From contig JAUQXC010000940.1 of the NCBI GenBank assembly GCA_030834825.1, forward strand, positions 1 to 46,553: a stretch of DNA of 46,553 bases, given 5' to 3'. Source of the DNA: Thermoflexales bacterium. GTDB lineage: Bacteria; Chloroflexota; Anaerolineae; Fen-1058. Below the pieces are notes generated by a model. The model searched no databases, was not told the origin of the DNA, and worked only from the letters and a program-made list of their open reading frames with translations. Positions 5,690 to 19,575 of this stretch are shown here, piece after piece (the first letter of the stretch is position 1; every line of letters begins with the position of its first letter). A program made the position numbers and the translations under genes.

Positions 5690-6559
5690 TCAATAGATTT
5701 CCGTCGCATCTTTGGGCAACTTTTTGACATGCCTCACGTAGTTGGATACTTTGATGTCATCCTGCTCCGGGTAATTGAATTCAAAGCAATTGGCCACGGA
5801 TTTGGCGCTCTGCCGAAAAAGATCATCCATGCTGAACAATGCTTCCCAGATGTGGTCCAACTGTGAATCAGAATAGGTGCCTTCGAGCAGCGCCCACAGC
5901 TCAGCGTCGATCTGACCCTTCAGGTATTTGCCCAATTTGCCGGAAGATTTTTGGAAATCTGTCTGTACGCCAAAGTACCATCTCAGCATTTTGAGCAATT
6001 GCTCTCTCAGCAGCGTGTCGAGTATGTACTTGGCGTGGATCAGCTCAGCGCGCCATAAGCTTTTGGCGACGTAGGGATTGAGCCACCAGAACTCATTGCA
6101 GCAATCGTCAAAGGCCTTGGCGCTCGGCTTTTGAGGAAGGTAGCCCGCGTCGCTCGGTGGCGGCAACTCTCCGAGCAGATTGTCCTTGTCGAGGAGCACC
6201 AGCGACAAACTATCTTTGAGGGTGACAGTGGTCTGGTGCAAGGCGTTGAAGCTCAGATCGATTCGAGTGCCGTCCATGAATTGCATCAGGTACGTGTAAT
6301 GCCCGTCACCCTCCGGGGGCGGATCGCTCATGTCTTCAGGCAACTGCAAGATCATGATCTCGCCGAAGTATTTGACGACGTCCATGTTGCGCCGGAACGG
6401 TTCGACGTCTCGGACATAGTAGACGATGTCGTAGTCCTGGAACGGATCTTTCTTTGCGTTGGGGTTGACGCGCGAACCATTCATCACCACGGCGCGTACC
6501 TCGTCGCACTCCCTGGCAAAGCTTAGAATGAGATCGAGCATTTCCTGTTCGCCGCGCAT
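5690..6559 (-). CDS. aadK: Aminoglycoside 6-nucleotidyltransferase, ANT(6)/AadK family (streptomycin adenylyltransferase-like)
   Basis: The N-terminus EMLDLILSFARECDEVRAVVMNGSRVNPNAKKDPFQDYDIVYYV closely resembles ANT(6)/AadK proteins, and the length (289 aa) fits. Confidence 0.8.
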   Translation of the reverse strand: MRGEQEMLDLILSFARECDEVRAVVMNGSRVNPNAKKDPFQDYDIVYYVRDVEPFRRNMDVVKYFGEIMILQLPEDMSDPPPEGDGHYTYLMQFMDGTRIDLSFNALHQTTVTLKDSLSLVLLDKDNLLGELPPPSDAGYLPQKPSAKAFDDCCNEFWWLNPYVAKSLWRAELIHAKYILDTLLREQLLKMLRWYFGVQTDFQKSSGKLGKYLKGQIDAELWALLEGTYSDSQLDHIWEALFSMDDLFRQSAKSVANCFEFNYPEQDDIKVSNYVRHVKKLPKDATEIY

Positions 6560-7168: not shown

Positions 7169-8422
7169 TTACTCTTTGCCCTTCCCCGTCACGATCCGGA
7201 TGCCGTCCTTGGTGTGCTTCATCTCATTCATGCCCCACGGAAAGTCGTACTGCGGCATCAAGTCCATAAAGGGATCCGGATCGAAGGCCTCCGGTCCCAA
7301 CACGCCGTGGCCCTCCCACTTGCCGGTGGCCAGCAATTCCATGGTGATTACCGGGCCGACGGCGGTCTGCCAGACCACGGCCTGCACGCCGTAATGCTTC
7401 ATGCACCACTCATTATCGGCCACCTGATACAAGTAGATTTGTTTCGCTTTGCCGCCTTGTTTGCCCGTGACCCACGTGCCCGCGCAGGTCTTCCCCGTCA
7501 TCTTGTCACCCAGATGCGATGGCTCCGGCAGGCACGCGGCCACCACATCCCGCGGCGCGACCAGCGAACCTTTAACCAGAATTTTCTCCTTGCTGTCAAG
7601 GCCCAGCATCTTCAGTGTCTTCAGCACGTTGATGAACTTGTCACCCAGACCGTACTTGAACGTCACGCGCTTGCATTTGATCCAGCGGGGCACCAGCAGC
7701 ACTTCTTCGTGCTCCACATTCACCACGTCCACCGAACCGATGCCATCGGGGAACTCGAAGGATTCCAGCTCGCTGAACGGCTCGGTGGTGTACCAGCTGC
7801 GCTTGGCTTCCCAGATGATCGGTGGATTCAGGCATTCCTCGATCGTCGTCCAAATGGAGAAATTGGGCGCGAAGGTGTAGCCGCGCACCTCGATGTTCGA
7901 TCCATCGCGCACGCCGATCTCGTCGATCTCGTCGAAGAGATGCTTCTCGGCGTAGCGGGCGAACACGTCGGCTACGCCCGGCTCGATGCCCATACCCACC
8001 AACGCCAACAGTTCCTTCTGCTCCCACTTGGCCGCCCGCTCGAATTGATAATCGCCTAACTTGACGCCGGTCTTGACGTAGGGGTCGAATTTGTGCGGCT
8101 TGGACAGCGTCATCGCCATGTCCATATAATTGACGCGCGCCTTATAAGCTGCGTCGAAGACGGTCTCGGCAAAGACGGGATCGACGGCGTTCATGATCAG
8201 ATCGACATTGTAATCGCGCGCCAGCTTCACGATCGCTTTCTTGTTGCGCGCGTCCAGCTGTTCCACGGGGAATTTCTTGGGATCGTTCAGCTTGGTGCTG
8301 ACCTCCTTCAGGCGGGGGAGGTTGTAATCAGCGAGTACCATTTTCTTCAGCCACGGCTTATCCTGTGCGATAATGGCGATGGCCTCACCCACACCGCCGG
8401 TGCCGATGAGCAATACCTTCAT
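7169..8422 (-). CDS. Saccharopine dehydrogenase family protein, carboxy(nor)spermidine dehydrogenase-like
   Basis: Rossmann start MKVLLIGTGGVG (ATG at 8422 preceded by AAGGAGAATC). KHLFDEIDEI, GKTCAGTWVTGK..GKAK and DPDPF resemble carboxynorspermidine dehydrogenase as I recall it. Confidence 0.7.
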   Translation of the reverse strand: MKVLLIGTGGVGEAIAIIAQDKPWLKKMVLADYNLPRLKEVSTKLNDPKKFPVEQLDARNKKAIVKLARDYNVDLIMNAVDPVFAETVFDAAYKARVNYMDMAMTLSKPHKFDPYVKTGVKLGDYQFERAAKWEQKELLALVGMGIEPGVADVFARYAEKHLFDEIDEIGVRDGSNIEVRGYTFAPNFSIWTTIEECLNPPIIWEAKRSWYTTEPFSELESFEFPDGIGSVDVVNVEHEEVLLVPRWIKCKRVTFKYGLGDKFINVLKTLKMLGLDSKEKILVKGSLVAPRDVVAACLPEPSHLGDKMTGKTCAGTWVTGKQGGKAKQIYLYQVADNEWCMKHYGVQAVVWQTAVGPVITMELLATGKWEGHGVLGPEAFDPDPFMDLMPQYDFPWGMNEMKHTKDGIRIVTGKGKE

Positions 8423-8632
8423 GATTCTCCTTGCTTCTTTAGTAGAGCCATTCTGCAAGGCGTCTACGCAGTTTCGTTTCAGATTCAACTGGATTCAGCG
8501 CTGGGGTTTGACGAACTTCCTGACCGGAAAGTATAGCACACGAGGATTGACGAACCAAACGCGGCGGCTGCCTGGATGCCGAGACAGCCGGGGGGGGGAG
8601 GGTTCACTCGCCGGCCAGCGTTAAATTCGTGC

Positions 8633-8752
8633 GGCTCTTCCGGGTTTAACGGGAAGAGCTCGCGGCGGATTGTCAAATCCGTCGCCAAAGCCGCTGGATT
8701 TGGCAATCCAGCGGGAGCAATCAACAATAACCCCGCGCAAGTCGGAAGAGCC
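8633..8752. mobile_element. MITE copy A (120 bp), with terminal inverted repeats GGCTCTTCCGG / TCGGAAGAGCC and 8-bp direct repeat ATTCGTGC on both flanks
   Basis: Left flank ATTCGTGC at 8625-8632 and right flank ATTCGTGC at 8753-8760. The TIRs match 10 of 11 positions. The interior is hairpin-rich (8691-8714 and 8664-8687). A second copy lies at 20530-20640. Confidence 0.75.
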
Positions 8753-8818
8753 ATTCGTGCGGATGCCATGCCGGGGTGCACTATTTGCGCGGCGTTTGAA
8801 CTGCGCCAACAATCAGCT

Positions 8819-8840
8819 GGAGTGGACCGCGATCCACTCC
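8819..8840 (-). terminator. Hairpin just downstream of the last gene of the hydrogenase-like operon
   Basis: GGAGTGGA-(6-nt loop)-TCCACTCC is an 8-bp perfect stem 25 nt after the stop at 8865. There is no strong U-run. Confidence 0.35.
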
Positions 8841-8864
8841 GGCTGTGGAATACAACCTGCTTGC

Positions 8865-9302
8865 TCAAGCCGTAACGGGATCGGGTTTGGGCATTTTTGA
8901 CTCAGCCAACTTCTTACGGTGGGTCTGGACATCTTCAGCCTTCCCGTAGTACATGTTGAACGGTTGTTTGCTTAGCGCCGCCAGTTCCCAATGTTCGTGC
9001 GACAAGCTCAGGCAGTCGAAGCGGCAGTTCTGCACGCATTGTGCACAGTAGGTGCAGCGATCGGCGTGATACTCCATGACGAAGCGCTTGGCCTTTCTGT
9101 CGATCGTAATCACCTCGATCGCGTTCGATGGACAGTCCTTACTGCACAGGTTGCAGCCCGTGCACTTTTCCGGATTCCACGCCAACTGGCCGCGTAGTCG
9201 ATCGGGGGTGGAACGCCGCTCGTACGGGTAGTTCTCGGTAATCGGCCGTTTGAACAGCGACTTCAAAATATCACTCAACATGGTTGCCACTTGGAAATTC
9301 AT
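8865..9302 (-). CDS. NuoI/HycF/MbhN-like 2x[4Fe-4S] ferredoxin subunit
   Basis: CTGCNLCSKDCP and CTYCAQCVQNC. The ATG at 9302 overlaps the upstream stop (ATGA), which suggests translational coupling. Confidence 0.85.
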   Translation of the reverse strand: MNFQVATMLSDILKSLFKRPITENYPYERRSTPDRLRGQLAWNPEKCTGCNLCSKDCPSNAIEVITIDRKAKRFVMEYHADRCTYCAQCVQNCRFDCLSLSHEHWELAALSKQPFNMYYGKAEDVQTHRKKLAESKMPKPDPVTA

Positions 9303-10222
9303 AAGGTCTTGCCTCCTAATAATGCGATGATTAACCACTGCACCAGCAACAACAGCGCGGCAAAGCGCCACCACTTGGCGGTTTGCTCGATGCGGAAGCG
9401 GGCAAACAGGGATTGCAGCCCGGCCAGCACCAGCAAGATCGCCAGCGTCTTGACGAAGAACTCGATCGGGTTGCCGATGCCGCCTAGATAGAAGGCCGCA
9501 ATCAGCGTCAAGCCCACCACCAGCTCGACCGCCTTGGCTAATTGGAACAACGCTAACCCGCGGCCGCCGTATTCCGTCAACGCGCCCTTGACGATTTCGG
9601 TTTCGGCTTCTGGCGCATCAAAAGGCGGCAGTTCCAGCTTGCCCATCAAGCCGACGAGGGCCACCACACAGCCGATCGGTTGGGTGAGAATAAGCCAGTG
9701 TTGACCGGTGAAGGCGTTGATCGTGCTGATCTGCCAGCTCCCCGCGACCAGCGCGGGTCCCAACAGTGCCAGCATGAACGGCGCTTCATAGGAAAAGAGC
9801 TGTGTCAGCGTGCGCACTGCCCCAATGAGCGAGAAGCGATTGGCGGTGTTGGCGCCGGCCAGCGCCAGGCTCATCGTTACTACGCTCAGCAGATACACTG
9901 TGACGATCAGATCGCCCTGAAAACTCCACGCGGGCTGCAATCCGACCAGCGGCACATACACAGCCGCGGTCAATGCGCAGGCCAGAGCCAGCAGCGGCAG
10001 ACCGTTGAAGAGCCAGGCCTCAATACCCGTCGGGACGATCTCTTCTTTACTGAGCAGCTTCACCACGTCGGCCAGTGGCTGGAACCAGCGCGGCCCGATG
10101 CGGTTCTGATACTGCGCCACCAGTTTGCGATCCACCCACAGATAAGCCAGCCCGTTGCCCATGACGAACAGTCCGGCGGGGAAGAATAACAGGGTGATGA
10201 TTGGTTGAATGATCTCCATCAT
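9299..10222 (-). CDS. NuoH/HycD/MbhM-like membrane subunit
   Basis: LWVDRKLVAQYQNRIGPRWFQPLADVVKLLSKEEIVP matches the NuoH signature (R.GP...G..QP.AD..K...KE). The protein has multiple TM segments. Start taken at MMEIIQ (10222). Confidence 0.85.
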   Translation of the reverse strand: MMEIIQPIITLLFFPAGLFVMGNGLAYLWVDRKLVAQYQNRIGPRWFQPLADVVKLLSKEEIVPTGIEAWLFNGLPLLALACALTAAVYVPLVGLQPAWSFQGDLIVTVYLLSVVTMSLALAGANTANRFSLIGAVRTLTQLFSYEAPFMLALLGPALVAGSWQISTINAFTGQHWLILTQPIGCVVALVGLMGKLELPPFDAPEAETEIVKGALTEYGGRGLALFQLAKAVELVVGLTLIAAFYLGGIGNPIEFFVKTLAILLVLAGLQSLFARFRIEQTAKWWRFAALLLLVQWLIIALLGGKTL

Positions 10223-10304
10223 AAAGCCTCGGAAATTTCTTGAATAGCCAGTGCTGCGTGCTGAGCAACACCACCTGAATCGCACTTCACTTCGTCACTT
10301 ATCA

Positions 10305-11396
10305 TTACCGGTCATTGCACGAAAAACAGGGATCAATGCCCGCCAGAATCATCGGCATGTCGGCCAGCTGATGGCCCGGCGCGGTGGCGATGATGGACAT
10401 GAAGTTGCACAGGCTGGGCGTGCGCACCTTGACGCGCTCCGGCTTTTCGCCGCCGTTGCTCTTAATGAAGTAAAAAGCTTCACCGCGCGGCGCCTCGATG
10501 CGGCTGATCGCCTCGCCTTCTTTGACCTTGCGCGGCATGCGCACCGTCAAGTCGCCGGGCGGCAGATTGTCCACCATCTCGCGGATCAGGCGGTAACTTT
10601 CAAGCAACTCCTTCAAGCGCACCACAAAGCGCGCTTCCAGATCGCCGGCCGTTTCAACCACCACGTTGACTGGGAACAGATTGTAGGCTGCGTAGGGTGC
10701 GTCCACGCGGACGTCGCGCGCAATCCCCGAGGCGCGCGCCATGGGACCGATGACACCCACGTGCTCGGCTTGTGCGGTCGTGAGTGTGCCCACCCCGCGC
10801 GTCCGGCGGATGAAGGTGCTATCGGTGGTGACGACTTTGTAATAGTGGTGGGTGCGTTCTTCCAAGTAATCGACGCCACGCTGGATGGCAGCGCGTTGTT
10901 TCTCGTCCACATCGAATTTCACGCCGCCAAGTACGTTAGCCGAATAATTCACCCGGTTACCGGTCAATCCTTCCAGTACGTCCATGATCGTTTCGCGGTC
11001 GCGCCAACTGTACATGAACAACGTATCAAAGCCGCCTTCATGTGCGGCCACGCCCAGCCACAAGAAATGGCTGTGCACGCGTTCCAGCTCGGCGACCAGC
11101 GATCGAATCACCTGTGCACGGGGTGGCGCGGTCACTTCGGCCAGGGCTTCCACCCCCAGCGAATAACAGAGTGCATGCGTGTGCGAGCAGATGCCGCAGA
11201 TGCGCTCAAGCAGATACAGATTCTGGGCCCAGTTGCGATCTTCGGTCGCTTTCTCGATGCCGCGATGCACGTAGCCCAGGCGCACATTGACCGAAGTCAC
11301 GGTCTCGCCGTCGACGGCAAATTCAAAATGGCCCGGCTCTTTCAGGGCAGGGTGTTGCGGGCCGATCGGAACGATGAACTTTTCAAGAGCTAGCAT
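10305..11396 (-). CDS. Group 4 [NiFe]-hydrogenase large subunit (NuoD/EchE/MbhL-like) with intact Ni-Fe ligand motifs
   Basis: N-terminal RICGICSHTH (Cys67, Cys70) and C-terminal DPCFSCNDR (Cys357, Cys360, the last residues). Length of 363 aa is typical of EchE/MbhL. Confidence 0.85.
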   Translation of the reverse strand: MLALEKFIVPIGPQHPALKEPGHFEFAVDGETVTSVNVRLGYVHRGIEKATEDRNWAQNLYLLERICGICSHTHALCYSLGVEALAEVTAPPRAQVIRSLVAELERVHSHFLWLGVAAHEGGFDTLFMYSWRDRETIMDVLEGLTGNRVNYSANVLGGVKFDVDEKQRAAIQRGVDYLEERTHHYYKVVTTDSTFIRRTRGVGTLTTAQAEHVGVIGPMARASGIARDVRVDAPYAAYNLFPVNVVVETAGDLEARFVVRLKELLESYRLIREMVDNLPPGDLTVRMPRKVKEGEAISRIEAPRGEAFYFIKSNGGEKPERVKVRTPSLCNFMSIIATAPGHQLADMPMILAGIDPCFSCNDR

Positions 11397-11461: not shown

Positions 11462-12346
11462 CTACTGCAGTTGTGGCATTACAAAATCCTTGCGCAATGG
11501 CGGCGCATCCGTGGGCCACTCGTCAGGCAGGAACAAGCGATCGGGATTCGGCGTGTTCATGACTTCGATGCCGAACATCTCGCCCAACTCGCGCTCGAAG
11601 AACGTCGCTGCCGGAATGACGCCGCACACGCTGGGAATCGCCGCACTATCGCGCGGAATGCGCACGCGCAGGTTTACGTTGGCTGTGCCATTGACGAAGT
11701 GGTAGAGCACCTCAAACTCGTTTGCCTTCAAATCGTCAAGCCCCGTGATCGCGGTCAAGAATCCCCAGCGGGCTTCGTGCAGCGACTTGACCGCAGGCAG
11801 CAAGCGCCCGGCGTCCAAGTAGGCATCGGCGCGGTGCGCCGCCGACTCGACGATCTTCAGCGCGCGCGGTTCCAACAGACCCATCGCTTGATGCAGCGCA
11901 CGGTGCGCCTGCCCCAGTAGATGATTCCGCACGATTTCCCAATCGACTTCGCACTCTTTCAAGATGATGCTCTTACAGCCCAGCTCGAGGTGTAGGTTAT
12001 TGTCTTTCCAGTGCGTGCCCAGACCGGCTTCAAACTGGAACTCCTGACGCAGCCCTGGGGCCAACGCCAGTCGATCGGCCAGGGTCAGCCCGCTGTAAAC
12101 CGGTCCCTGCGGAAAATTCATGGCGTTAAGCCATTCTTCCGTGGCGGCCTGCGCAGTCTCGGGGCGTGCGGTGAGATAGACCAGTTTGTAGCGCTGCGCT
12201 AATTCCTTCAAGCAGCGCACGCTATCCGGCGTCGGCGCATCTTTCAGCAGGACTTCGCGCTTGAAAAAGTCCGGCGCGCCACTCAAGTGCTGTCGCTGGC
12301 GGTAATCGCAAATGATGCCATCGATGAAAACGAGAACTGCTCTCAT
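11462..12346 (-). CDS. Fusion protein with an N-terminal HAD-like (apparently nucleophile-less) domain and a NuoC/EchD/MbhK-like domain
   Basis: The C-terminal ~140 aa (FLTAITGLDD...EVLYHF...NLRVRIP...IPSVCGVIPAATFFERELGEMFGIEV) is NuoC-like. The N-terminal ~140 aa (VLVFIDGIICD, KLVYLTARPE..TEEWL, THWKDN) looks like a HAD phosphatase fold. It is a single ORF, with GAGGAG 6 nt before the ATG at 12346. Confidence 0.7.
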   Translation of the reverse strand: MRAVLVFIDGIICDYRQRQHLSGAPDFFKREVLLKDAPTPDSVRCLKELAQRYKLVYLTARPETAQAATEEWLNAMNFPQGPVYSGLTLADRLALAPGLRQEFQFEAGLGTHWKDNNLHLELGCKSIILKECEVDWEIVRNHLLGQAHRALHQAMGLLEPRALKIVESAAHRADAYLDAGRLLPAVKSLHEARWGFLTAITGLDDLKANEFEVLYHFVNGTANVNLRVRIPRDSAAIPSVCGVIPAATFFERELGEMFGIEVMNTPNPDRLFLPDEWPTDAPPLRKDFVMPQLQ

Positions 12347-12425
12347 GTGTGCTCCTCTGGAGATGGAGGTTGGAAAAACAGCGCGCCGCCTTGGGCGCCG
12401 ACCACCACTCTCCCACTTCCAATTT

Positions 12426-12905
12426 CTAACTGACCATTACTTCTGGCTGGGGTTGCAAGCTCTGCAACAGCTTCACCATACCGTCGATGATGGCTTCCGG
12501 CCGGGGCGGGCAGCCGGGAATATACGCATTGACCGGAATCACTTCATCGATGTGGCCGACGACGTTGTAGCAGACCTGGAACGCGCCGCCCGAGATCGCG
12601 CAAGCGCCAACGGCCACCACGAACTTCGGTTCCGGCATCTGCTCGTAGATGCGTTTCAACCGATCGCGCGATTGTAGCGTCACCGGCCCGGTGCAGATCA
12701 ACACATCCGCATGGCGCGGGCTGCCTTGCAGCTTCACGCCAAAGCGCTCCAGATCGTAGCGCGGTGTCAGCGTTGCCAGAATCTCGATGTCGCAGCCGTT
12801 GCACGATCCGCTGTTGTAGTGGATGGCCCATGGCGAATTGATGCGCGCCCAGGTGCGCAGCGCGTCGAGGGTGTGTTCCCAGGTTTCAGTCAAATTGAGT
12901 GACAT
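12426..12905 (-). CDS. NuoB/EchC/MbhJ-like hydrogenase small subunit (single [4Fe-4S])
   Basis: CNGCDIE, GACAISGG and IPGCPPRPEAI together supply four Cys ligands. The ATG at 12905 is preceded by GGAGGAATATCAC. Confidence 0.85.
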   Translation of the reverse strand: MSLNLTETWEHTLDALRTWARINSPWAIHYNSGSCNGCDIEILATLTPRYDLERFGVKLQGSPRHADVLICTGPVTLQSRDRLKRIYEQMPEPKFVVAVGACAISGGAFQVCYNVVGHIDEVIPVNAYIPGCPPRPEAIIDGMVKLLQSLQPQPEVMVS

Positions 12906-12962
12906 GTGATATTCCTCCAAGACCCAGAGGTGATGAGCCATTCACTCATCACGCGTCAGGCT

Positions 12963-13274
12963 TTAGCCAATGATCAACACGACCAGGGCCAGCATCAACC
13001 CGATCAAATACACGATCGAAATGGGCGAGTTGCCGCCGCTGCCCAGGATCAACACGCCCAGGTGCAACATGGCGAAGAACAGGGCGATGACGAAGAAGCC
13101 GCGATAACCCGGCAGCGAGCGAGTGAGCGGTGAAGCCTCGCCGCTGGCATAGATGCTGGACTTCTCTTTTGAAGGATTGCTCCTGCCTGCCAGCAGTCGT
13201 CCCACGCCAAATAAGCTCGCGGCCAACACCAAATACAGAATGAAGGCCACGGGTGGAGTAAGTATGATTTGCAT
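12963..13274 (-). CDS. NuoA-like small membrane subunit
   Basis: A 103-aa product from the ATG at 13274 with three predicted TM segments. IYASGE ... FFVIALFFAMLHLGVL parallels NuoA Y(E/A)xG ... FYLVAxxFxxFDVE. Confidence 0.55.
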   Translation of the reverse strand: MQIILTPPVAFILYLVLAASLFGVGRLLAGRSNPSKEKSSIYASGEASPLTRSLPGYRGFFVIALFFAMLHLGVLILGSGGNSPISIVYLIGLMLALVVLIIG

Positions 13275-13285
13275 GTTGAAATCCT

Positions 13286-14794
13286 TTATCCGCCAAAGGC
13301 TTTGACTAGCGCCGTACCGGCTGGCCCTGTCAGCCAGGCCAACAAACTCGGCCAGAGGCCCAGGATCACGATCGCGACAGCCAGTAGAATCAAGGGCAGG
13401 CTCATCGTCCACGACAGCGCCTGCCCGCGCGTCACCGCTTCACTTGGCTCTTGCCGATAGACGGCGTTCACGATCGGCGCGTAATAAGCCAATGACAGCA
13501 CGCTGTTCAACGCGGCGAAAATCACCAGCAGATCGATCACGATGTTCTGCGTCTCGAAGCCGGCCACGAAGATTTGCCACTTGGACATGAACCCGGCAAA
13601 CGGTGGCAGCCCACCCAGCCCTAAGGCAGCGATGCTCAACGTCAAGGCCACGATCGGGTATTTGCGTGCCGCACCACCCAGATCGCTGATCGTCAGCGGC
13701 GAGTGATGATCGCCGGTCTTGATGAACAGCACGTATAACAACGCGCCCGCTGCCAGGAAGGCGAGTCCCTTCATCAAACCATGATTAATCAAGTGGAAGA
13801 AACTACCAGCGGCCGCTGCGCTCTGGCCCACATAAACGGCGATGCCCAGCCCCAGCAGCATATAACCCATATGGCTCAAACTGGAGAACGCCAGCATGCG
13901 CTTCACATGCTTTTGGCGCAGCGCCAGCAAATTTCCCGCCAGCATATTCAACGCGCCGAAGCCCATCAGCAGCACACCCCACGACAACGTCACACCGGCC
14001 AACGAAGCGACCGCGCGCAACAAGGCGATCAACCCTGCTTCGATCACCACGCCCGACAGCATGGCGCTGATCCCACTGGGCGCCTGGGAGTGCGCGTCGG
14101 GCAGCCACGTGTGCATCGGCACCAGCGCGGCCTTCACGCCAAACCCAATGACGAACAAGGCGCCCGCCGCAAGTAGCGGCAAACCGGGGGTTGCCGGCTG
14201 TCCCGCCACGGCGCGAATCTCGGCCAGATTCATCGTCCCCGTCAGCGCCAGCACCAGTGCCATCCCCAACAGCACCAACACCGATCCGACCGCGCTCTGC
14301 ACCAGATACTTCAAGCCGGCCTCCAGTGACGCCGGTTGATCGCGATAGAACGCGACGAGCAGATACGATGAGATCGCCATTGCTTCGAACCACACCCACA
14401 GATTGAATAGATCCGTCGCGCAACCCAAACCGGTGATCACACCGATCAGTGCCACCAGCATGGGATAGTATTTGTCTTCGTTCTCTTCATGCGCAACATA
14501 TCGATTGGAGTACACCACCACCAGCGTGCCCAGGCTCAACGCAATGGCCGCCAGCACCAGGCTGATCCCGTCCATGCGCAGCGTCATCCCTTCGACAACC
14601 AGGCTGATCGATCCGGTGCCTACTTGTTGTGCGGCAATCACGAACGGGATCCACGTCAACCCGATCACGCCAAGTGCGGCCCAGCGCCCAAGGTTGAACA
14701 AGCGGCCCGCGAAATAGACTAGTGGGGCAGCCACCAGGGGTAGTCCGATCAACCACAACAGTACATTGTCCAGTGCGAATTGTTCCGTGCTCAT
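13286..14794 (-). CDS. NuoM/NuoN/MrpD-like antiporter-type membrane subunit
   Basis: Polytopic protein with WLPDAHSQAPSGISAMLSGV and SSLSHMGYMLLG motifs of the proton-conducting transporter family. Start at MSTEQF (14794), 2 nt after the upstream stop. Confidence 0.8.
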   Translation of the reverse strand: MSTEQFALDNVLLWLIGLPLVAAPLVYFAGRLFNLGRWAALGVIGLTWIPFVIAAQQVGTGSISLVVEGMTLRMDGISLVLAAIALSLGTLVVVYSNRYVAHEENEDKYYPMLVALIGVITGLGCATDLFNLWVWFEAMAISSYLLVAFYRDQPASLEAGLKYLVQSAVGSVLVLLGMALVLALTGTMNLAEIRAVAGQPATPGLPLLAAGALFVIGFGVKAALVPMHTWLPDAHSQAPSGISAMLSGVVIEAGLIALLRAVASLAGVTLSWGVLLMGFGALNMLAGNLLALRQKHVKRMLAFSSLSHMGYMLLGLGIAVYVGQSAAAAGSFFHLINHGLMKGLAFLAAGALLYVLFIKTGDHHSPLTISDLGGAARKYPIVALTLSIAALGLGGLPPFAGFMSKWQIFVAGFETQNIVIDLLVIFAALNSVLSLAYYAPIVNAVYRQEPSEAVTRGQALSWTMSLPLILLAVAIVILGLWPSLLAWLTGPAGTALVKAFGG

Positions 14795-14796
14795 GG

Positions 14797-16545
14797 CTAC
14801 TTCCCCCAGGCCAGTAGGATTAGCACCACGATCAAGCCGATCGCGATCCCGGCTACGTTCCAACTGAGCAGCCCCGTCTGTGTCACCCGCAGCGCTTCTG
14901 CGGTGCTTTGCGTTACGCGGATCACGCCGCGATTGATCGCCTCGAAGCCGAAGCTGTTCGTCGCCATCCGCGCAAGACCCTGCAGCATCCTGGTGAGGCC
15001 TGTCAATCGCTGGCGTTGCCACCACAACAGCCCACCAGCGACAATCACGGCCAGAGCGGCGAGCGTCGCGGGCTGGGTAATGACTTCCTGGATCATTCCC
15101 CCAGTGCGGAGCTCGTGAAACTCATGGAAGGGCAGCGTGCTCTTCAGTAGCTCACTCAACGGTCCGGCTAACAACCACGTCGTCACGGAGCCGAGGGCCA
15201 ACAACCCCAGCGAAACTTTCATCGCCGGCTGTGCATCGTGCGCGTGGAGGTGACTGCGCGGCTTACCGAAGAACACCAGATAAACCATGCGCAGGGTGTA
15301 CAGCGCTGTCAGGCCTGCGCAGAAAAACGCCACACCGTAAGCCCACAGCGAACCTTCATGCAGGCCGGCTTCCAAAATCAATTCCTTACTCCAGAAGCCA
15401 TTGAAGATGGGAATACCGGCCAGGGCCAGCGCCCCGATCACGAACACCGTGCGCGTGAAAGGCATCCGCGAGCCGAGTCCACCCATCTGGCGCATATCGC
15501 GTGTGCCCACGCCATGAATCACGGCGCCGGCGGCCAGGAAGAGCAATGCCTTGAAGACAGCGTGACTTAGCAGGTGGAACTGACTGGCATACACCCCACC
15601 CGCGCCGATGGCATACACCATGTACCCTAATTGGCTTACGGTCGAATAAGCCAGCGCACGCTTGAGGTCGGTCGCCACCAATGCCATCAGTCCCGCCAGC
15701 AACGCAGAGAGTAACCCCACGATCATCACGGCGGTTGTCCAGCCGGCCACTCCCTCAAATGCGGGGAAGAAACGCGCCAACAGATACACGCCAGCGTTGA
15801 CCATCGTCGCCGCGTGGATCAAAGCGCTGACTGGCGTGGGTGCCTCCATTGCATCGGGCAACCATGTCTGGAACGGAAACTGTGCCGATTTGGCCGCCGC
15901 CGCAATGAGGAATCCAAACGCGACCAGCGCCAGGACCTCTTTCGGCAGTGTTTCGGCCCTTTCGAGAAAAGCGGCGATCTGATAGCTGCCCGTCTGGGCA
16001 TAGATGATCAAGGCCCCGCTGAGCAACCCCACCCCACCGAGCGAGGTGATAATCAGGGCCTTGATCCCCCCCGCCACTGCCTTGGGATCATCGTTATTGA
16101 AGGCAATCAGCGCGAACGAGCAGAAGGCCGTGACTTCCCAGAACACAAACAGAAACAACAGGCTGCCGGTCAACGCCAAACCCGCCATTGCGCCGATGAA
16201 CAACAACACCAGCTCATAATAGCGCCCCAGCTGTTTATCGCCGTGCATATAATTTACCGAGAAGATAACGGCCAGTGAGCCGACCACGGTCGCGATGATT
16301 GCGAGGAACACGCTCAGGCCGTCGGGCGTGAAAGTGAGATCACCGAAAAGGCCGCCCAAGGGGATCACAATCGCCGGAGTGGCAGAGGCATATGGCAGCA
16401 GCAACAACGCAGCGCTACCGGTGGCTACAGCAAACACGACAGCCAGTGTGTGTTGTGCCCGCGGGTGTTTGTTTGTCGTCAACCACACGGCCAGTCCACC
16501 CAGCCAGGGCAAACCCATTGTGAGGAGAATCAATGCTTGAATCAT
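14797..16545 (-). CDS. NuoL/MrpA/MbhH-like antiporter-type membrane subunit with C-terminal lateral-helix-like extension
   Basis: WLPDAMEAPTPVSALIHAATMV and STVSQLGYM motifs. The C-terminal SFGFEAINRGV...QTGLLSWNVAGIAIGLIVVLILLA resembles the NuoL HL helix plus its final TM segment. Confidence 0.8.
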   Translation of the reverse strand: MIQALILLTMGLPWLGGLAVWLTTNKHPRAQHTLAVVFAVATGSAALLLLPYASATPAIVIPLGGLFGDLTFTPDGLSVFLAIIATVVGSLAVIFSVNYMHGDKQLGRYYELVLLFIGAMAGLALTGSLLFLFVFWEVTAFCSFALIAFNNDDPKAVAGGIKALIITSLGGVGLLSGALIIYAQTGSYQIAAFLERAETLPKEVLALVAFGFLIAAAAKSAQFPFQTWLPDAMEAPTPVSALIHAATMVNAGVYLLARFFPAFEGVAGWTTAVMIVGLLSALLAGLMALVATDLKRALAYSTVSQLGYMVYAIGAGGVYASQFHLLSHAVFKALLFLAAGAVIHGVGTRDMRQMGGLGSRMPFTRTVFVIGALALAGIPIFNGFWSKELILEAGLHEGSLWAYGVAFFCAGLTALYTLRMVYLVFFGKPRSHLHAHDAQPAMKVSLGLLALGSVTTWLLAGPLSELLKSTLPFHEFHELRTGGMIQEVITQPATLAALAVIVAGGLLWWQRQRLTGLTRMLQGLARMATNSFGFEAINRGVIRVTQSTAEALRVTQTGLLSWNVAGIAIGLIVVLILLAWGK

Positions 16546-16608: not shown

Positions 16609-16914
16609 TCACTTCTTCAACGTCGACAAATCCTTGATATCGAGCGTTCCCATGCGCCGCTTCACCTGAAGCGCCAGCGCCAATCCAATAACGGCGACGA
16701 CGGTATCGACCACGATCACCATCACGGCCAGGCTCTGTCCCAGATTGAGCTTGCCACTGGCCAGGCCGGCCGCCACCAATGCCAGCAGCGCGCCTTTCAC
16801 CAGCACTTGCAACGCTACGATGACCTTAATCAGATTGCGAGCGATCAACAGGCCATACAACCCAATCCCGATCAATCCCAACACCCCTATCACGGCGATT
16901 TGAAGTGTAGTCAT
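16609..16914 (-). CDS. NuoK/MnhC-like small membrane subunit
   Basis: 101 aa with three TM segments. ARNLIKVIVALQVLVKGALLALVAAG and VIGLALALQVKRR parallel NuoK. The ATG overlaps the upstream stop (ATGA). Confidence 0.75.
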   Translation of the reverse strand: MTTLQIAVIGVLGLIGIGLYGLLIARNLIKVIVALQVLVKGALLALVAAGLASGKLNLGQSLAVMVIVVDTVVAVIGLALALQVKRRMGTLDIKDLSTLKK

Positions 16915-17474
16915 GCTTTCGCCTCGCGAGCTGCGGCGGTTGCAGGTTTCACTACAGGGCGGCCCGCCTGTAACTCCTTCGCAGGCGCGGTCTTCTTCTC
17001 TTCCACCGGAACCTTGGCTTCAGAGAGCAACCCCAGTATGCCGACGACCGCGGCGAACAGTAGGCCGCTTTGCACCAGCATGTCCAGACCGCGCTGTTGC
17101 CAGAGTACTTCGGAGAAAGTCGCTTCAGTTGCCGGCGGAAGCGCAATCAGTGAGGAGATAGTCATGAAGCCGAGTAGGATGATCGAGACAAGGGAAATGA
17201 TCAAGGCGATCGGGCGGGGAATGCTCGATCTGAACTCGGCCGATTCATCGCCGGCAATGCTGATCGCGAACACGAACAGCACCGTCACCAACCCGGCACC
17301 CACACTGAGTTCAATCACAGCGATCCAGTAGGCGCCCAGCAGATACATCAAAATCGAAAGGATCGCGCTGCACCCTGCCAGCCACAACGCCGAAACGATT
17401 AAGTGCCTTGCCCGAAATGCCAGGAAGGCACAGAGCAACATGGCGACGGTCAGGGCCGCAAACAAGAAACTCAT
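16911..17474 (-). CDS. NuoJ-like membrane subunit
   Basis: LGAYWIAVIELSVGAGLVTVLFVFAI parallels NuoJ GA.F.A..EI.VYAGAI.VLF.F. The ATG at 17474 has GGAGGT 7 nt upstream; the track's TTG start at 17489 is that RBS. Confidence 0.75.
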   Translation of the reverse strand: MSFLFAALTVAMLLCAFLAFRARHLIVSALWLAGCSAILSILMYLLGAYWIAVIELSVGAGLVTVLFVFAISIAGDESAEFRSSIPRPIALIISLVSIILLGFMTISSLIALPPATEATFSEVLWQQRGLDMLVQSGLLFAAVVGILGLLSEAKVPVEEKKTAPAKELQAGRPVVKPATAAAREAKA

Positions 17475-17705
17475 ACTTTCTACCTCCAAGTTGTTAACAC
17501 CTCAAACCAAAGAAGATTACCGCTAATTGGGAAAAACCGGTTCTGAAAAATGTCATGCTTTGTCTACGCTATTCAGCACGTTTGTGATTTTCAGCACAAA
17601 AATCCGGCTGTCAGTGGGTAAGCACGAGACCAATAATCTTTAAATCGCTCAGATTCTAAAAAAAGCACCCAAAAGCCCAACTTTCTGCAAACCAAAAATT
17701 ACCTC

Positions 17706-17770: not shown

Positions 17771-18430
17771 ATGCCAGCCAAACGTTCCCTCTCAAAGCAA
17801 AAAACATCCCTGACAATGGCCATAACTCCGCCCGCTGAGCCGACCACCAAGGGCGAGCGCACACGTGCGGTACTGCTCGATGCGGCTAAACGCTTATTTG
17901 TCAGCCAAGGGTTTCATGGCACGTCCATGCGGGCGATTGCGGATGAAGCCGGGCTGGCCTTGGGCGGCATCTACAACCATTTTGGCAGCAAAGAAGACAT
18001 CTTTGTCGCCATCTTGGCGGAACGGCATCCGTTCCTCATTGTGCTGCCCGCCATACAATCTGCGCAGGGCGCCACGGTCGAGGTGTTGGTGCGGGATGCG
18101 GCAGGACGCATGATTGCTGAACTCAGTCAAAATCAGGAGTTCCTGAATTTGCTGCTCATCGAGCTGGTGGAGTTTGAAGCCAAACACATCCCCATGATGT
18201 TCGACACCCTCTTTCCGCCCTTGATGGAGTTTGCCCAACGCTTTCAAGCGGTGCACGGTCCACTGCGCGAGATTCCCCTGCCGATTATTTTGCGCTCCTT
18301 TATCGGCTTGTTCTTTTCCTACTTCATCACCGATCTGCTCATCGGCAACCTGTTGCCGGCAGAAATGAAGAGCGGTGCCTTCGACTATTTCATCGACATC
18401 TACCTGCACGGGATTCTGGCCGGCGAATGA
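17771..18430 (+). CDS. TetR/AcrR family transcriptional regulator
   Basis: HTH region RTRAVLLDAAKRLFVSQGFHGTSMRAIADEAGLALGGIYNHFGSKEDIF. Confidence 0.9.
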   Translation: MPAKRSLSKQKTSLTMAITPPAEPTTKGERTRAVLLDAAKRLFVSQGFHGTSMRAIADEAGLALGGIYNHFGSKEDIFVAILAERHPFLIVLPAIQSAQGATVEVLVRDAAGRMIAELSQNQEFLNLLLIELVEFEAKHIPMMFDTLFPPLMEFAQRFQAVHGPLREIPLPIILRSFIGLFFSYFITDLLIGNLLPAEMKSGAFDYFIDIYLHGILAGE

Positions 18431-19575
18431 AAGTGGTCAGCATGATCAATTCACGCTTGCGTTCCATCATCTACAAAGAGTTCATTCAAATCATCCGCGA
18501 TCCGCGCACCTTGGTGATCATGTTTATCATGCCCATCCTCATGTTGTTCCTGCTGGGGTATGCGGCCACCAACGATGTGCGCAACATCCCGGCGGCGATT
18601 TTTGATCAGGATCGTTCTGTGGCTGCCCGCGAGTTGATCGACGCCTACCGCGCCGCCGATTACTTCCGGTTTGATTTTGACGTGAGCTCACCTGAAGAAC
18701 TGCAGTGGCTCATCGACAGCGGGCAGGCGCGCGCCGGGTTGATCATCCCGCCGGATTACGGGCAACGCCTGGCACGCCACGAACAGGCGCAGGTGGCCTT
18801 TATCCTGGATGGTTCCGATCCCACCATCGCGGCCACGGCACTGTCGGCGGCCACCTTGATCGGGCAGGCCAAGGCCACGGCGGTGCTGCGCGCCACGCTG
18901 GAGACGCGCGGCCAGGGCGGCTCGATCGAAGCGCCGGTCGAAGTCCGCACCCAGGTCTGGTACAACCCCGATCTCGTCAGCGCCTATTTCATGATTCCGG
19001 CGCTCATCGGCACGATTCTGCAGTATATGGCGGTGCTGTTAACTTCCACTTCGATCGTGCGTGAGCGGGAGCGCGGCACGATCGAGCAGCTCATCATCAC
19101 GCCCATTCGTTCCTGGGAACTGGTGGTCGGCAAGCTCACACCTTACACCTTGATCGCGTTCTTCAATTTGCTGGAAGTATTGATCATCGGCACGTTGTGG
19201 TTCAAAGTTCCCATCACGGGCGACCTCGGTTTATTGCTGGTTTTGTCGGCGTTGTTTTTGGTCAGTACGCTGGGTATCGGTTTGCTCATCTCGACGATCG
19301 CGCGGACGCAGTTTGAGGCGATGCTGCTGGCCTTTCTCATTCAATTGCCGGCGATCTTCCTGTCAGGCTTCTTCTTCCCGCTGGCCGCCATGCCGCCCTT
19401 CCTGCAAGCGTTGAGCTATCTGGTGCCGCTGCGCTACTTCTTGATTATTGTGCGTTCGATTGTCATCAAAGGCGTCGGGTTGGCGGCTGTGTTTCCGGAA
19501 GTAATAGCATTGGCGATCTTTGGATTGCTGGTGATGGGCATCGCGGCGCGGCGCTTCCATAAGCGGTTGGATTAA
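18427..19575 (+). CDS. ABC-2 type transporter permease (YbhR/YhhJ-like)
   Basis: IIYKEFIQIIRDPRTLVIMFIMPILMLFLLGYA, a large periplasmic loop, then five C-terminal TM segments. There is an ATGA overlap with the TetR stop. Confidence 0.85.
   Translation: MKVVSMINSRLRSIIYKEFIQIIRDPRTLVIMFIMPILMLFLLGYAATNDVRNIPAAIFDQDRSVAARELIDAYRAADYFRFDFDVSSPEELQWLIDSGQARAGLIIPPDYGQRLARHEQAQVAFILDGSDPTIAATALSAATLIGQAKATAVLRATLETRGQGGSIEAPVEVRTQVWYNPDLVSAYFMIPALIGTILQYMAVLLTSTSIVRERERGTIEQLIITPIRSWELVVGKLTPYTLIAFFNLLEVLIIGTLWFKVPITGDLGLLLVLSALFLVSTLGIGLLISTIARTQFEAMLLAFLIQLPAIFLSGFFFPLAAMPPFLQALSYLVPLRYFLIIVRSIVIKGVGLAAVFPEVIALAIFGLLVMGIAARRFHKRLD

Follow-up and report, generated by a model that had tools for sequence, protein, structure and literature searches.

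The window analysed here, a 46,553-nucleotide (nt) stretch of contig JAUQXC010000940.1 of a Thermoflexales bacterium (Chloroflexota), carries on its minus strand a gene for a protein of 294 amino acids (aa) plus stop (11462..12346, -), which, according to direct translation, Pfam and homologues, joins a HAD/LNS2-like pseudo-phosphatase domain to a NuoC-like subunit. Direct translation reveals no internal stop in this open reading frame (ORF), and a Shine-Dalgarno-like GAGGAG (12352..12357, -), read directly from the sequence, lies 5 nt 5' of the ATG (12344-12346). An earlier note on this DNA, made from the letters alone, had pointed to a ribosome-binding site of the gene's own and to an uninterrupted frame; the motif and the frame stand, whereas the spacing is 5 nt and not the 6 nt given there. 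According to AlphaFold, Foldseek, profile and PF24694 matches, residues 1-145 (11912..12346, -) form a complete HAD Rossmannoid domain of lipin/LNS2 type, in which helices at ~16-33 make up a small cap, and residues 146-294 plus stop (11462..11911, -) form a complete NuoC/Nqo5/MbhK-like domain, as assigned by PF00329, Foldseek and conserved columns.

The fused gene is part of a co-directional operon in the order nuoJ-K-L-L-A-B-[HAD-C]-D-H-I. The membrane arm, assigned by family search and gene order, includes NuoJ/MbhD-like (16911-17489, -), NuoK-like (16609-16914, -) and NuoA-like (12963-13412, -) proteins and two antiporter-like subunits (14797-16545, - and 13286-15025, -). The remaining partners of the fused protein are a NuoB-like hydrogenase small subunit (12426..12941, -; PF01058), a NuoD-like group 4 [NiFe]-hydrogenase large subunit of 363 aa (10305..11396, -; Pfam, NiFe motifs and solved relatives), a NuoH-like protein (9299-10285, -; Pfam, PF00146) and a NuoI-like protein with 2x[4Fe-4S] (8865-9374, -; Pfam). 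The NuoD-like protein retains both nickel-iron ligand motifs, RICGICSHTH in its N-terminal and DPCFSCNDR in its C-terminal part, and among solved structures it is closest to MbhL from the membrane-bound hydrogenase of Pyrococcus (6cfw_L, E 1e-78) and to Escherichia coli HycE (7z0s_E, E 3e-73). Assignment to group 4 was based on RxCGxCxxxH and DPCxxCxxH/R in the large subunit together with NuoB-, NuoH- and NuoI-like partners, all of which are found at the level of the operon. With these NiFe motifs, and with MbhL and HycE as the best solved relatives, the operon encodes a complex-I-like, membrane-bound group 4 [NiFe] hydrogenase, in agreement with the earlier note. No dedicated donor module (formate dehydrogenase, carbon monoxide (CO) dehydrogenase or NuoEFG) is encoded in the operon. 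Nothing extends the large subunit beyond DPCFSCNDR at its C-terminus, and the operon lacks a gene for a HycI-type protease. In a sister operon that encodes a plain NuoC (L043, 10492-13490), the large subunit is 401 aa long and is followed by a HycI gene; besides the NuoC appendage, maturation appears to differ between the two lineages.

The NuoC-like domain is restricted to the C-terminal half of the fused protein, as the earlier note had proposed. PF00329 (Complex1_30kDa) is confined to residues 177-291 (E 4e-27, 95.7 bits against a threshold of 22.5) within the complete subunit of residues 146-294, and the ERE..G stability motif, which is near-invariant across homologues, is present as FFERELGEMFG. 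The two features together place this half in the NuoC / complex I 30 kDa family. Its scores against the NCBIfam NuoC equivalogs and TIGR01961 are under their cut-offs (70 vs 122 bits); thus, it is a NuoC-like subunit of the hydrogenase type rather than a genuine complex I NuoC. With the full-length model as query, Foldseek finds NuoC-type chains only (such as HycE 7z0s_E, MbhK 6cfw_K, MbsK 6u8y_K and Nqo5 3i9v_5), and residues 146-294 are a full member of the fold common to NuoC/Nqo5/NDUFS3/NdhJ, HycE's N-terminal domain, MbhK and MbsK. Unlike the window protein, none of the solved or surveyed NuoC-type homologues outside the fused clade has an N-terminal HAD domain. In known fusions, NuoC has its partner on the C-terminal side, either as NuoD (E. 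coli NuoCD and HycE) or in the form B/C/D.

Foldseek with the full-length model is dominated by NuoC, and the fold of the N-terminal domain was read from a separate AlphaFold model of residues 1-148 (pLDDT 96.5, pTM 0.91). The top 50 Foldseek matches to this model are all HAD-fold proteins, the best of them at a probability of 1.00, with E values of 1e-6 to 1e-5 and TMq of 0.63-0.73 for the top matches overall. The best match is to Tetrahymena lipin/Pah2 (9d14 and 6tzy; E 1e-6, TMq 0.73 and 0.67); others near the top include Nir2 LNS2 (9jtz, 9jz1) and the PNKP phosphatase domains of T4 and Clostridium, and 5uj0 is likewise among the matches. A family profile run against the PDB identifies Nir2 LNS2 (E 7e-13), lipin/Pah2 (E 2e-10) and class B acid phosphatase (E 2e-6), and a single-sequence phmmer search of the PDB with the N-terminal domain gives a marginal match to Nir2 (E 0.059). 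The Pfam model PF24694 (LNS2_PITM1-3) is matched at 30.3 bits against a gathering score of 27.7, over residues 51-85 only (~35 of 124 profile positions), and many members of the family score below the gathering threshold. NCBIfam has no model for the domain. The suggestion in the earlier note that the N-terminal ~140 aa adopt a HAD fold is borne out by the agreement of PF24694, profile matches, AlphaFold and Foldseek, the last of these being a check (here on residues 1-148) that the note itself had called for. Together, the model and the profiles point to a complete HAD-fold domain of the lipin/LNS2 type in residues 1-145.

To place the catalytic residues, columns were counted in three sets: (i) 18 canonical relatives, (ii) 32 free or otherwise-fused nucleophile-less members (here, the free members) and (iii) 43 NuoC-fused members. 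The canonical relatives are drawn from an exhaustive profile search of 1.84 billion proteins; the search profile of 325 positions included C-terminal columns, so many of the matches are plain NuoC, although the N-domain matches are still usable. The canonical relatives score on the LNS2, APP1, acid phosphatase B and PNKP models and have the motifs D-[IV]-D-G-T-I-A-D, Y-[LV]-[ST]-[AS]-R, Lys and G-[IV]-G-[DN]-R-x-x-D. FIDGIICD aligns gap-free with the canonical motif I, and VYLTARP, R92 and GLGTHWKDN align with the other motifs; thus, the strings FIDGIICD, VYLTARP and HWKDN singled out in the earlier note are real HAD motifs I, II and IV, all three of them aligned column for column.

Motif I (residues 5-14, LVFIDGIICD; 12305..12334, -) is degenerate when aligned with the canonical relatives. 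The D-x-D-x-[TV] of HAD phosphatases, in which the nucleophile Asp ends strand 1, is absent and F7-I-D9-G-I11 is found instead, i.e., Phe7 for the nucleophile, Asp9 kept and Ile11 for Thr. Position 7 is Asp in 18 of 18 canonical relatives, in line with the remark in the earlier note that F-I-D-G stands where D-x-D-G is expected; it is Phe in all 32 free members and F (33), A (4), S (3) or H (2) in the fused clade. Position 9, the second Asp of DxD, is Asp in the canonical and free sets and D (41) or E (2) among fused members. Position 11, the Thr of DxDxT, is Thr in 16 canonical relatives and all 32 free members and is I (24), V (11), T (5) or L (2) after fusion. The motif II region (residues 55-62, LVYLTARP; 12161..12184, -; alignment) has an invariant Arg61 and, at position 59, Thr in the window protein and T (25), A (11), G (6) or S (1) across the fused clade, compared to T (10) or S (8) in canonical relatives and G in the 32 free members; given this spread, the residue does not seem to be maintained by selection. 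The motif III Lys is absent. Its column, as judged by the counts, is occupied by Arg92 (12071..12073, -), with K in 18 canonical relatives and R in 32 free and 39 fused members; some HAD families use Arg at this position, so this change alone is not decisive. Motif IV (residues 108-116, GLGTHWKDN; 11999..12025, -) is likewise degenerate by alignment, with G-T111-H-W-K-D115 in place of G-D-x-x-x-D. Its first Asp, a Mg ligand, is replaced by Thr111 in the window protein and is missing in 43 of 43 fused members (T 18, A 15, V 3, M 2, D 0), compared to D (12) or N (5) in canonical relatives and D in 32 free members. The second Asp, D115, is kept throughout (D 17 and E 1 in the canonical set, D 32 in the free set and D 43 in the fused set). 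Because the DxD nucleophile is missing, the window protein is incapable of forming the HAD aspartyl-phosphate intermediate and of acting as a canonical HAD phosphatase. A register that makes Asp9 the nucleophile, in a DGT.. motif like that of P-type ATPases, was considered and rejected, as the canonical D-I-D-G-T-I-A-D aligns gap-free to F-I-D-G-T-I-C-D. A metal site of Cys13, Cys45 and Cys124 was also set aside; these residues are conserved in most members, yet each is substituted in several fused members.

The fusion is not peculiar to the window. A search of 5.8 billion proteins identifies ~47 full-length fused clusters of 54-100% identity, and 43 full-length homologues were tabulated; the members that have a name are labelled either 'NADH:ubiquinone oxidoreductase subunit C' or 'hydrogenase III component G' and nothing else. 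Five GTDB bins (L001-L005), which belong to Chloroflexia, Anaerolineae and Thermoflexales, have the fused form, in each case within this operon, and so does L044; the membrane-arm genes are in the same order in these six loci. The fusion is limited to a narrow clade of uncultured Chloroflexota. The survey of homologues that the earlier note had recommended finds the N-terminal extension conserved in this clade and absent from the nearest plain NuoC proteins. With ~43 tabulated homologues, five bins and the NiFe motifs, the view that this is a real in-frame fusion inside an energy-converting hydrogenase operon is upheld. In one Thermoflexales bin (L004, 1189-3306), the frame runs on through nuoD to give a 706-aa HAD-NuoC-NuoD protein, with all tblastn segments in one frame. 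When the whole protein was compared to plasmids by tblastn, only ordinary NuoC/HycE matches to the C-terminal half were found.

The junction between the halves is essentially linker-free. Stand-alone N-domains (143-157 aa) end at the ...VR.HLLG helix, which corresponds to residues 139-145, while stand-alone NuoC homologues (160-175 aa) open with a helix that starts at about residue 146; no linker is recognised because the free N-domains end where the free NuoC proteins begin (~145/146). Compared pairwise with L001-L005, the window gene has a dN/dS of 0.12-0.24 in its HAD half and of 0.12-0.28 in its NuoC half. As these ranges match, the extra domain is under strong purifying selection and constrained to the same degree as the core subunit. 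The sister operon L043 has the same gene order and a plain 164-aa NuoC; thus, the HAD domain is an add-on to an enzyme that is able to exist without it.

Relatives of the N-terminal domain are encoded at 42 genomic loci, and those outside the five hydrogenase loci share the consensus FIDGTICD...GIGDRWDDN, within the longer stretches M-K-A-I-L-V-F-I-D-G-T-I-C-D and A-G-I-G-D-R-W-D-D-N-E-L-H. Free-standing proteins of 143-157 aa are found in Clostridia (Lutispora, Sedimentibacter, Anaerocolumna and Clostridium sp.), Anaerolineaceae and Hydrogenedentota and are unnamed or listed as 'hypothetical protein' in databases. Fusions other than to NuoC include: (i) a protein of ~322 aa in which the HAD domain is joined to a PF14196 'ATC hydrolase'-like domain, from Chloroflexia and Asgard (Promethearchaeota) bins, (ii) a fusion to a methyltransferase (P0092) and (iii) a 429-aa fusion to a PF04439 nucleotidyltransferase (P0101). 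The HAD-PF14196 architecture, in which the PF14196 part is Cys/His-rich, is observed at L015-L023, L026, L027, L029, L032 and L034-L037 and in P0062 and P0068, and the Chloroflexia and Promethearchaeota proteins of this type are 45-53% identical to the window domain. The shared architecture suggests transfer between bacteria and archaea. The nucleophile-less HAD family as a whole is not previously described, and the earlier note had not recognised that the window domain is one of its members or that the family exists apart from hydrogenases.

A neighbour-joining tree with its root on the canonical relatives has the nucleophile-less family as one monophyletic group (75/75) and, inside it, the NuoC-fused clade as another (43/43), with free proteins of 149-157 aa from Chloroflexota and Hydrogenedentota as the sisters of the latter. 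The simplest history would be one fusion of a pre-existing gene that was already nucleophile-less. The gene neighbourhoods of the family contain no hydrogenase genes outside the five hydrogenase loci, and those of the free-standing members have no consistent functional theme. The sole recurrence is of class I S-adenosylmethionine (SAM) methyltransferase genes, which adjoin free or ATC-hydrolase-fused members at seven loci of Bacillota and Asgard (L014 10992-11564; L013, L020-L022, L034 and L035) and at L006 (8829-9737). These neighbours, together with the direct HAD-methyltransferase fusion of P0092, provide a lead for the function of the free family.

The fused and free members differ in where the domain is constrained, as measured by column entropy on the neighbour-joining tree. 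The free family has an invariant pocket of F7, D9, T11, G59, R92, D111 and D115. Positions 7, 8, 11, 59, 60, 109, 111, 112 and 114 are invariant in free and variable in fused members; they belong to motifs I, II and IV (i.e., the old pocket) and are among the most variable of the fused clade. This variability is seen despite the lower diversity of the fused clade, in which the mean column entropy is 0.76, compared to 1.26 in the free set. Conversely, positions 21, 23, 25, 30, 44, 46, 48, 73, 121, 140, 143 and 144 are invariant in fused and variable in free members. Most map to the cap helices (21, 23, 25 and 30), helix 42-50 (44, 46 and 48) and the last helix before NuoC (140, 143 and 144). 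Selection has shifted away from the pocket and onto other positions.

The nearest precedent for these losses of residues is found in the LNS2 domains of Nir1, Nir2 and Nir3 (PITPNM1-3; 9jtz, 9jz1, 9jzp; PF24694). These resemble the window domain in having a lipin-type HAD fold that is non-catalytic, with the nucleophile Asp replaced (SIDGS in Nir1, FIDGI in the window) and the first motif IV Asp missing. In Nir1, SIDGS takes the place of DxDxT, and the Nir LNS2 domains sense phosphatidic acid (PA) without hydrolysis (PMC10925316, PMC12582312). The phosphate of PA is bound in Nir2 via S1025, T1065, K1103 and K1126 (PMC12582312). The Nir domains differ in their basic concave surface, Ig-like domain and amphipathic helix; by contrast, the window domain is 145 aa long, net negative, bacterial and fused to a hydrogenase subunit, and its residues at the ligand positions are F, variable, R and mostly acidic. 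The lipin/Pah/App1 phosphatases and the bacterial lipin-like/class B acid phosphatase-like HADs (PF08235, PF09949, PF03767; 6tzy, 9d14) share the fold and motif layout, with canonical bacterial relatives aligning over the whole domain. The lipin/Pah/App1 group consists of Mg-dependent phosphatases with D-x-D-G-T, S/T, K and G-D/N-R-x-x-D, whereas the window domain has other residues in place of the nucleophile, the Thr, the Lys and the first motif IV Asp. Enzyme folds recruited as non-catalytic structural or receptor parts of membrane complexes are exemplified by the pseudo-enzyme subunits of mitochondrial complex I, i.e., NDUFA10 (deoxynucleoside-kinase fold), NDUFA9 (short-chain dehydrogenase/reductase (SDR) fold) and the gamma-carbonic-anhydrase subunits, and by Tim50, an FCP1-type HAD pseudo-phosphatase in the TIM23 translocase. 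Unlike the window domain, these proteins are eukaryotic, come from unrelated families and exist as polypeptides of their own. Both accessory pseudo-enzymes in machines of the complex I type and LNS2 domains without the nucleophile are already known kinds. The statement in the earlier note that no described subunit of complex I or group 4 hydrogenases bears such an appendage is matched by a full-text literature search, which returned nothing relevant on a HAD or accessory domain attached to NuoC or to group 4 hydrogenase subunits.

The favoured explanation, to which a probability of about 0.6 is given, is that a dead lipin/LNS2-type HAD domain was fused once, had its pocket relaxed and was exapted as a non-catalytic accessory module that serves the structure of the peripheral arm. 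The analysis shows the fold, the missing catalytic residues, the conserved fusion, purifying selection and the change in which positions are constrained, while a role in structure, assembly or docking is the inferred step. The donor would have been a stand-alone lipin/LNS2-type HAD gene that had already lost the nucleophile (Asp to Phe) and still had an invariant pocket. In a single event in the Anaerolineae/Thermoflexales lineage, the whole HAD gene would have been placed onto the N-terminus of NuoC, head to tail and without a linker. Selection on the pocket would then have relaxed, with T11 and D111 lost and positions 7, 59, 112 and 114 drifting, while strict selection would have come to act on the cap helices (21-30), on helix 42-50 and on the C-terminal helix next to the NuoC half. 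Most likely, the domain would help the NuoB/C/D/I module to assemble or remain stable, or would offer a docking surface for a partner. A structural or docking role is preferred over that of a sensor because the pocket positions became variable while other positions became fixed. A structural accessory would also fit the NuoC-type domains themselves, which are cofactor-free and have roles in the assembly and stability of formate hydrogenlyase (FHL) and complex I (PMC7050243). The role of NuoC-type subunits is still termed enigmatic (PMC7050243). Several points weigh against this explanation. D9, G10, D14, R16, R18, R61, D115 and N116 are still conserved in the fused clade and some of these line the old pocket; thus, a residual small-ligand or metal site may persist via D9, D14, R18, R61, D115 and N116. 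The fused clade is also shallower than the free set, which makes the newly invariant positions weaker evidence than the newly variable ones. The full-length AlphaFold model is confident for both halves (pLDDT 92.2); however, its pTM is only 0.67, so the inter-domain geometry is undefined and the relative orientation of the halves uncertain.

Among the alternatives, a Nir-like sensor, in which PA, another anionic lipid or a phosphorylated metabolite in the old site would regulate or localise the hydrogenase, is considered improbable. Nir2 LNS2, a non-catalytic PA sensor, is the closest solved relative by profile (E 7e-13) and shares the two losses of the nucleophile and first motif IV Asp, and D9, D14, R18, R61, D115 and N116 remain conserved in the fused clade. 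However, S1025, T1065, K1103 and K1126 of Nir2 map to positions 7, 59, 92 and 114, of which position 7 is a bulky Phe or A/S/H, 59 is T/A/G, 92 is a conserved Arg and 114 is mostly Glu/Asp (the Lys of the window protein is not among the common residues). Thus, three of the four phosphate ligands of Nir2 are not maintained, and few positions of the fused clade vary as much as those of the pocket. The domain is acidic overall (mean net charge of ~-3) and has no basic membrane-binding face, and both the Ig-like domain and the amphipathic helix that lipins and Nir proteins possess are missing; in short, neither the set of four phosphate-coordinating residues nor the basic face of a Nir-type PA sensor is found. 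The regulatory or ligand-sensing role raised in the earlier note is, therefore, disfavoured, with the pocket variable in the fused clade and the Nir2 phosphate residues mostly not conserved. A broader form of this idea is also doubtful. It takes the HAD domain as a regulatory input on the hydrogenase, in which a phosphorylated or metal ligand held via D9, D14, R16, R18, R61, D115 and N116, or recruitment of a partner, may gate electron flow or coupling. Separately, it takes the free FIDGTICD...GDRWDDN family of Clostridia, Chloroflexota and Asgard archaea as a new HAD-fold class that may have a non-aspartyl chemistry or a specific ligand.

It is equally improbable that the domain, next to the NuoI-like subunit, helps to build the site at which ferredoxin or another redox protein would bind as electron donor or acceptor, by analogy to photosynthetic NDH-1, in which small subunits are added around NdhI/NdhJ. 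Such a docking module would suit an operon without a dedicated donor module and a domain in which positions outside the old pocket became fixed after fusion, but the sister operon L043 works with the same subunit set and no such domain, and the loci examined contain no partner gene whose occurrence tracks that of the domain. That the fused domain is still an enzyme with a non-canonical mechanism, with D9 or the family-specific Cys13 as the nucleophile, is highly unlikely. The strictly invariant pocket of the free family is compatible with some chemistry in that family, and Cys13 accompanies Phe7 (C in 32/32 free members compared to A/S/V/T in canonical relatives). The fused clade, however, lost T11 and D111, has A/G in place of Cys13 in 7 of 43 members and varies at position 7; an active site would not tolerate such substitutions. 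The notion that a HAD-like gene and nuoC were merged by an error of sequencing or assembly, or that translation starts at an internal Met, is essentially refuted already. Free-standing versions of each half do occur in other genomes, and the databases contain a few split or truncated entries, such as P0081 and P0048 (together on a contig of 1988 nt) and P0079. By contrast, 43 independent clusters and five genome bins all have an unbroken frame, which in L004 extends through nuoD, and purifying selection is equal on both halves. Met155 (MGLLEPR...), the internal start that the earlier note had considered, varies between M, L, I and T among homologues and is not preceded by a Shine-Dalgarno or other ribosome-binding site.

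Several other genes surround the operon or bear on its annotation. The two antiporter-like ORFs (13286-15025 and 14797-16545) overlap by 229 nt as listed, while their counterparts in L044 abut with zero overlap; the true start of the gene at 13286-15025 is probably an internal codon. After nuoI, a 127-aa ORF (8485-8868, -) has no family match and no counterpart in L044, and it is probably spurious. A saccharopine-dehydrogenase-like gene (7169-8488, -), also after nuoI, is kept in L003 (93% identity) and L044 but not in L001; its annotated TTG start is probably placed too far upstream. About 5 kb downstream and on the same strand lies a gene for a nucleotidyltransferase of the PF04439 'streptomycin adenylyltransferase' type (5690-6559, -; E 3e-106), which is syntenic in L044 (15569-16447) and absent near L001-L005. 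Its occurrence here, together with the fusion of the same family to the HAD domain in P0101, may reflect a functional link or coincidence. A TetR-family regulator and an ABC-2 transporter permease (17771-19575, +) are divergent from the hydrogenase operon.

Among the living relatives of the ancestor of respiratory complex I, energy-converting hydrogenases are the closest, and the acquisition of accessory parts by such machines is known mostly from eukaryotic complex I. The HAD-NuoC fusion provides a clean bacterial case of such a gain, in which the steps are legible from the sequence: loss of the nucleophile in a stand-alone HAD protein, one head-to-tail fusion, relaxation of the pocket and fixation of other positions. 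Annotation pipelines name the fused members 'NADH-quinone oxidoreductase subunit C' and ignore the extra domain. The finding flags an uncharacterised and widely scattered family of nucleophile-less HAD proteins, and the fused subunit offers a concrete target for learning what NuoC-type subunits do.

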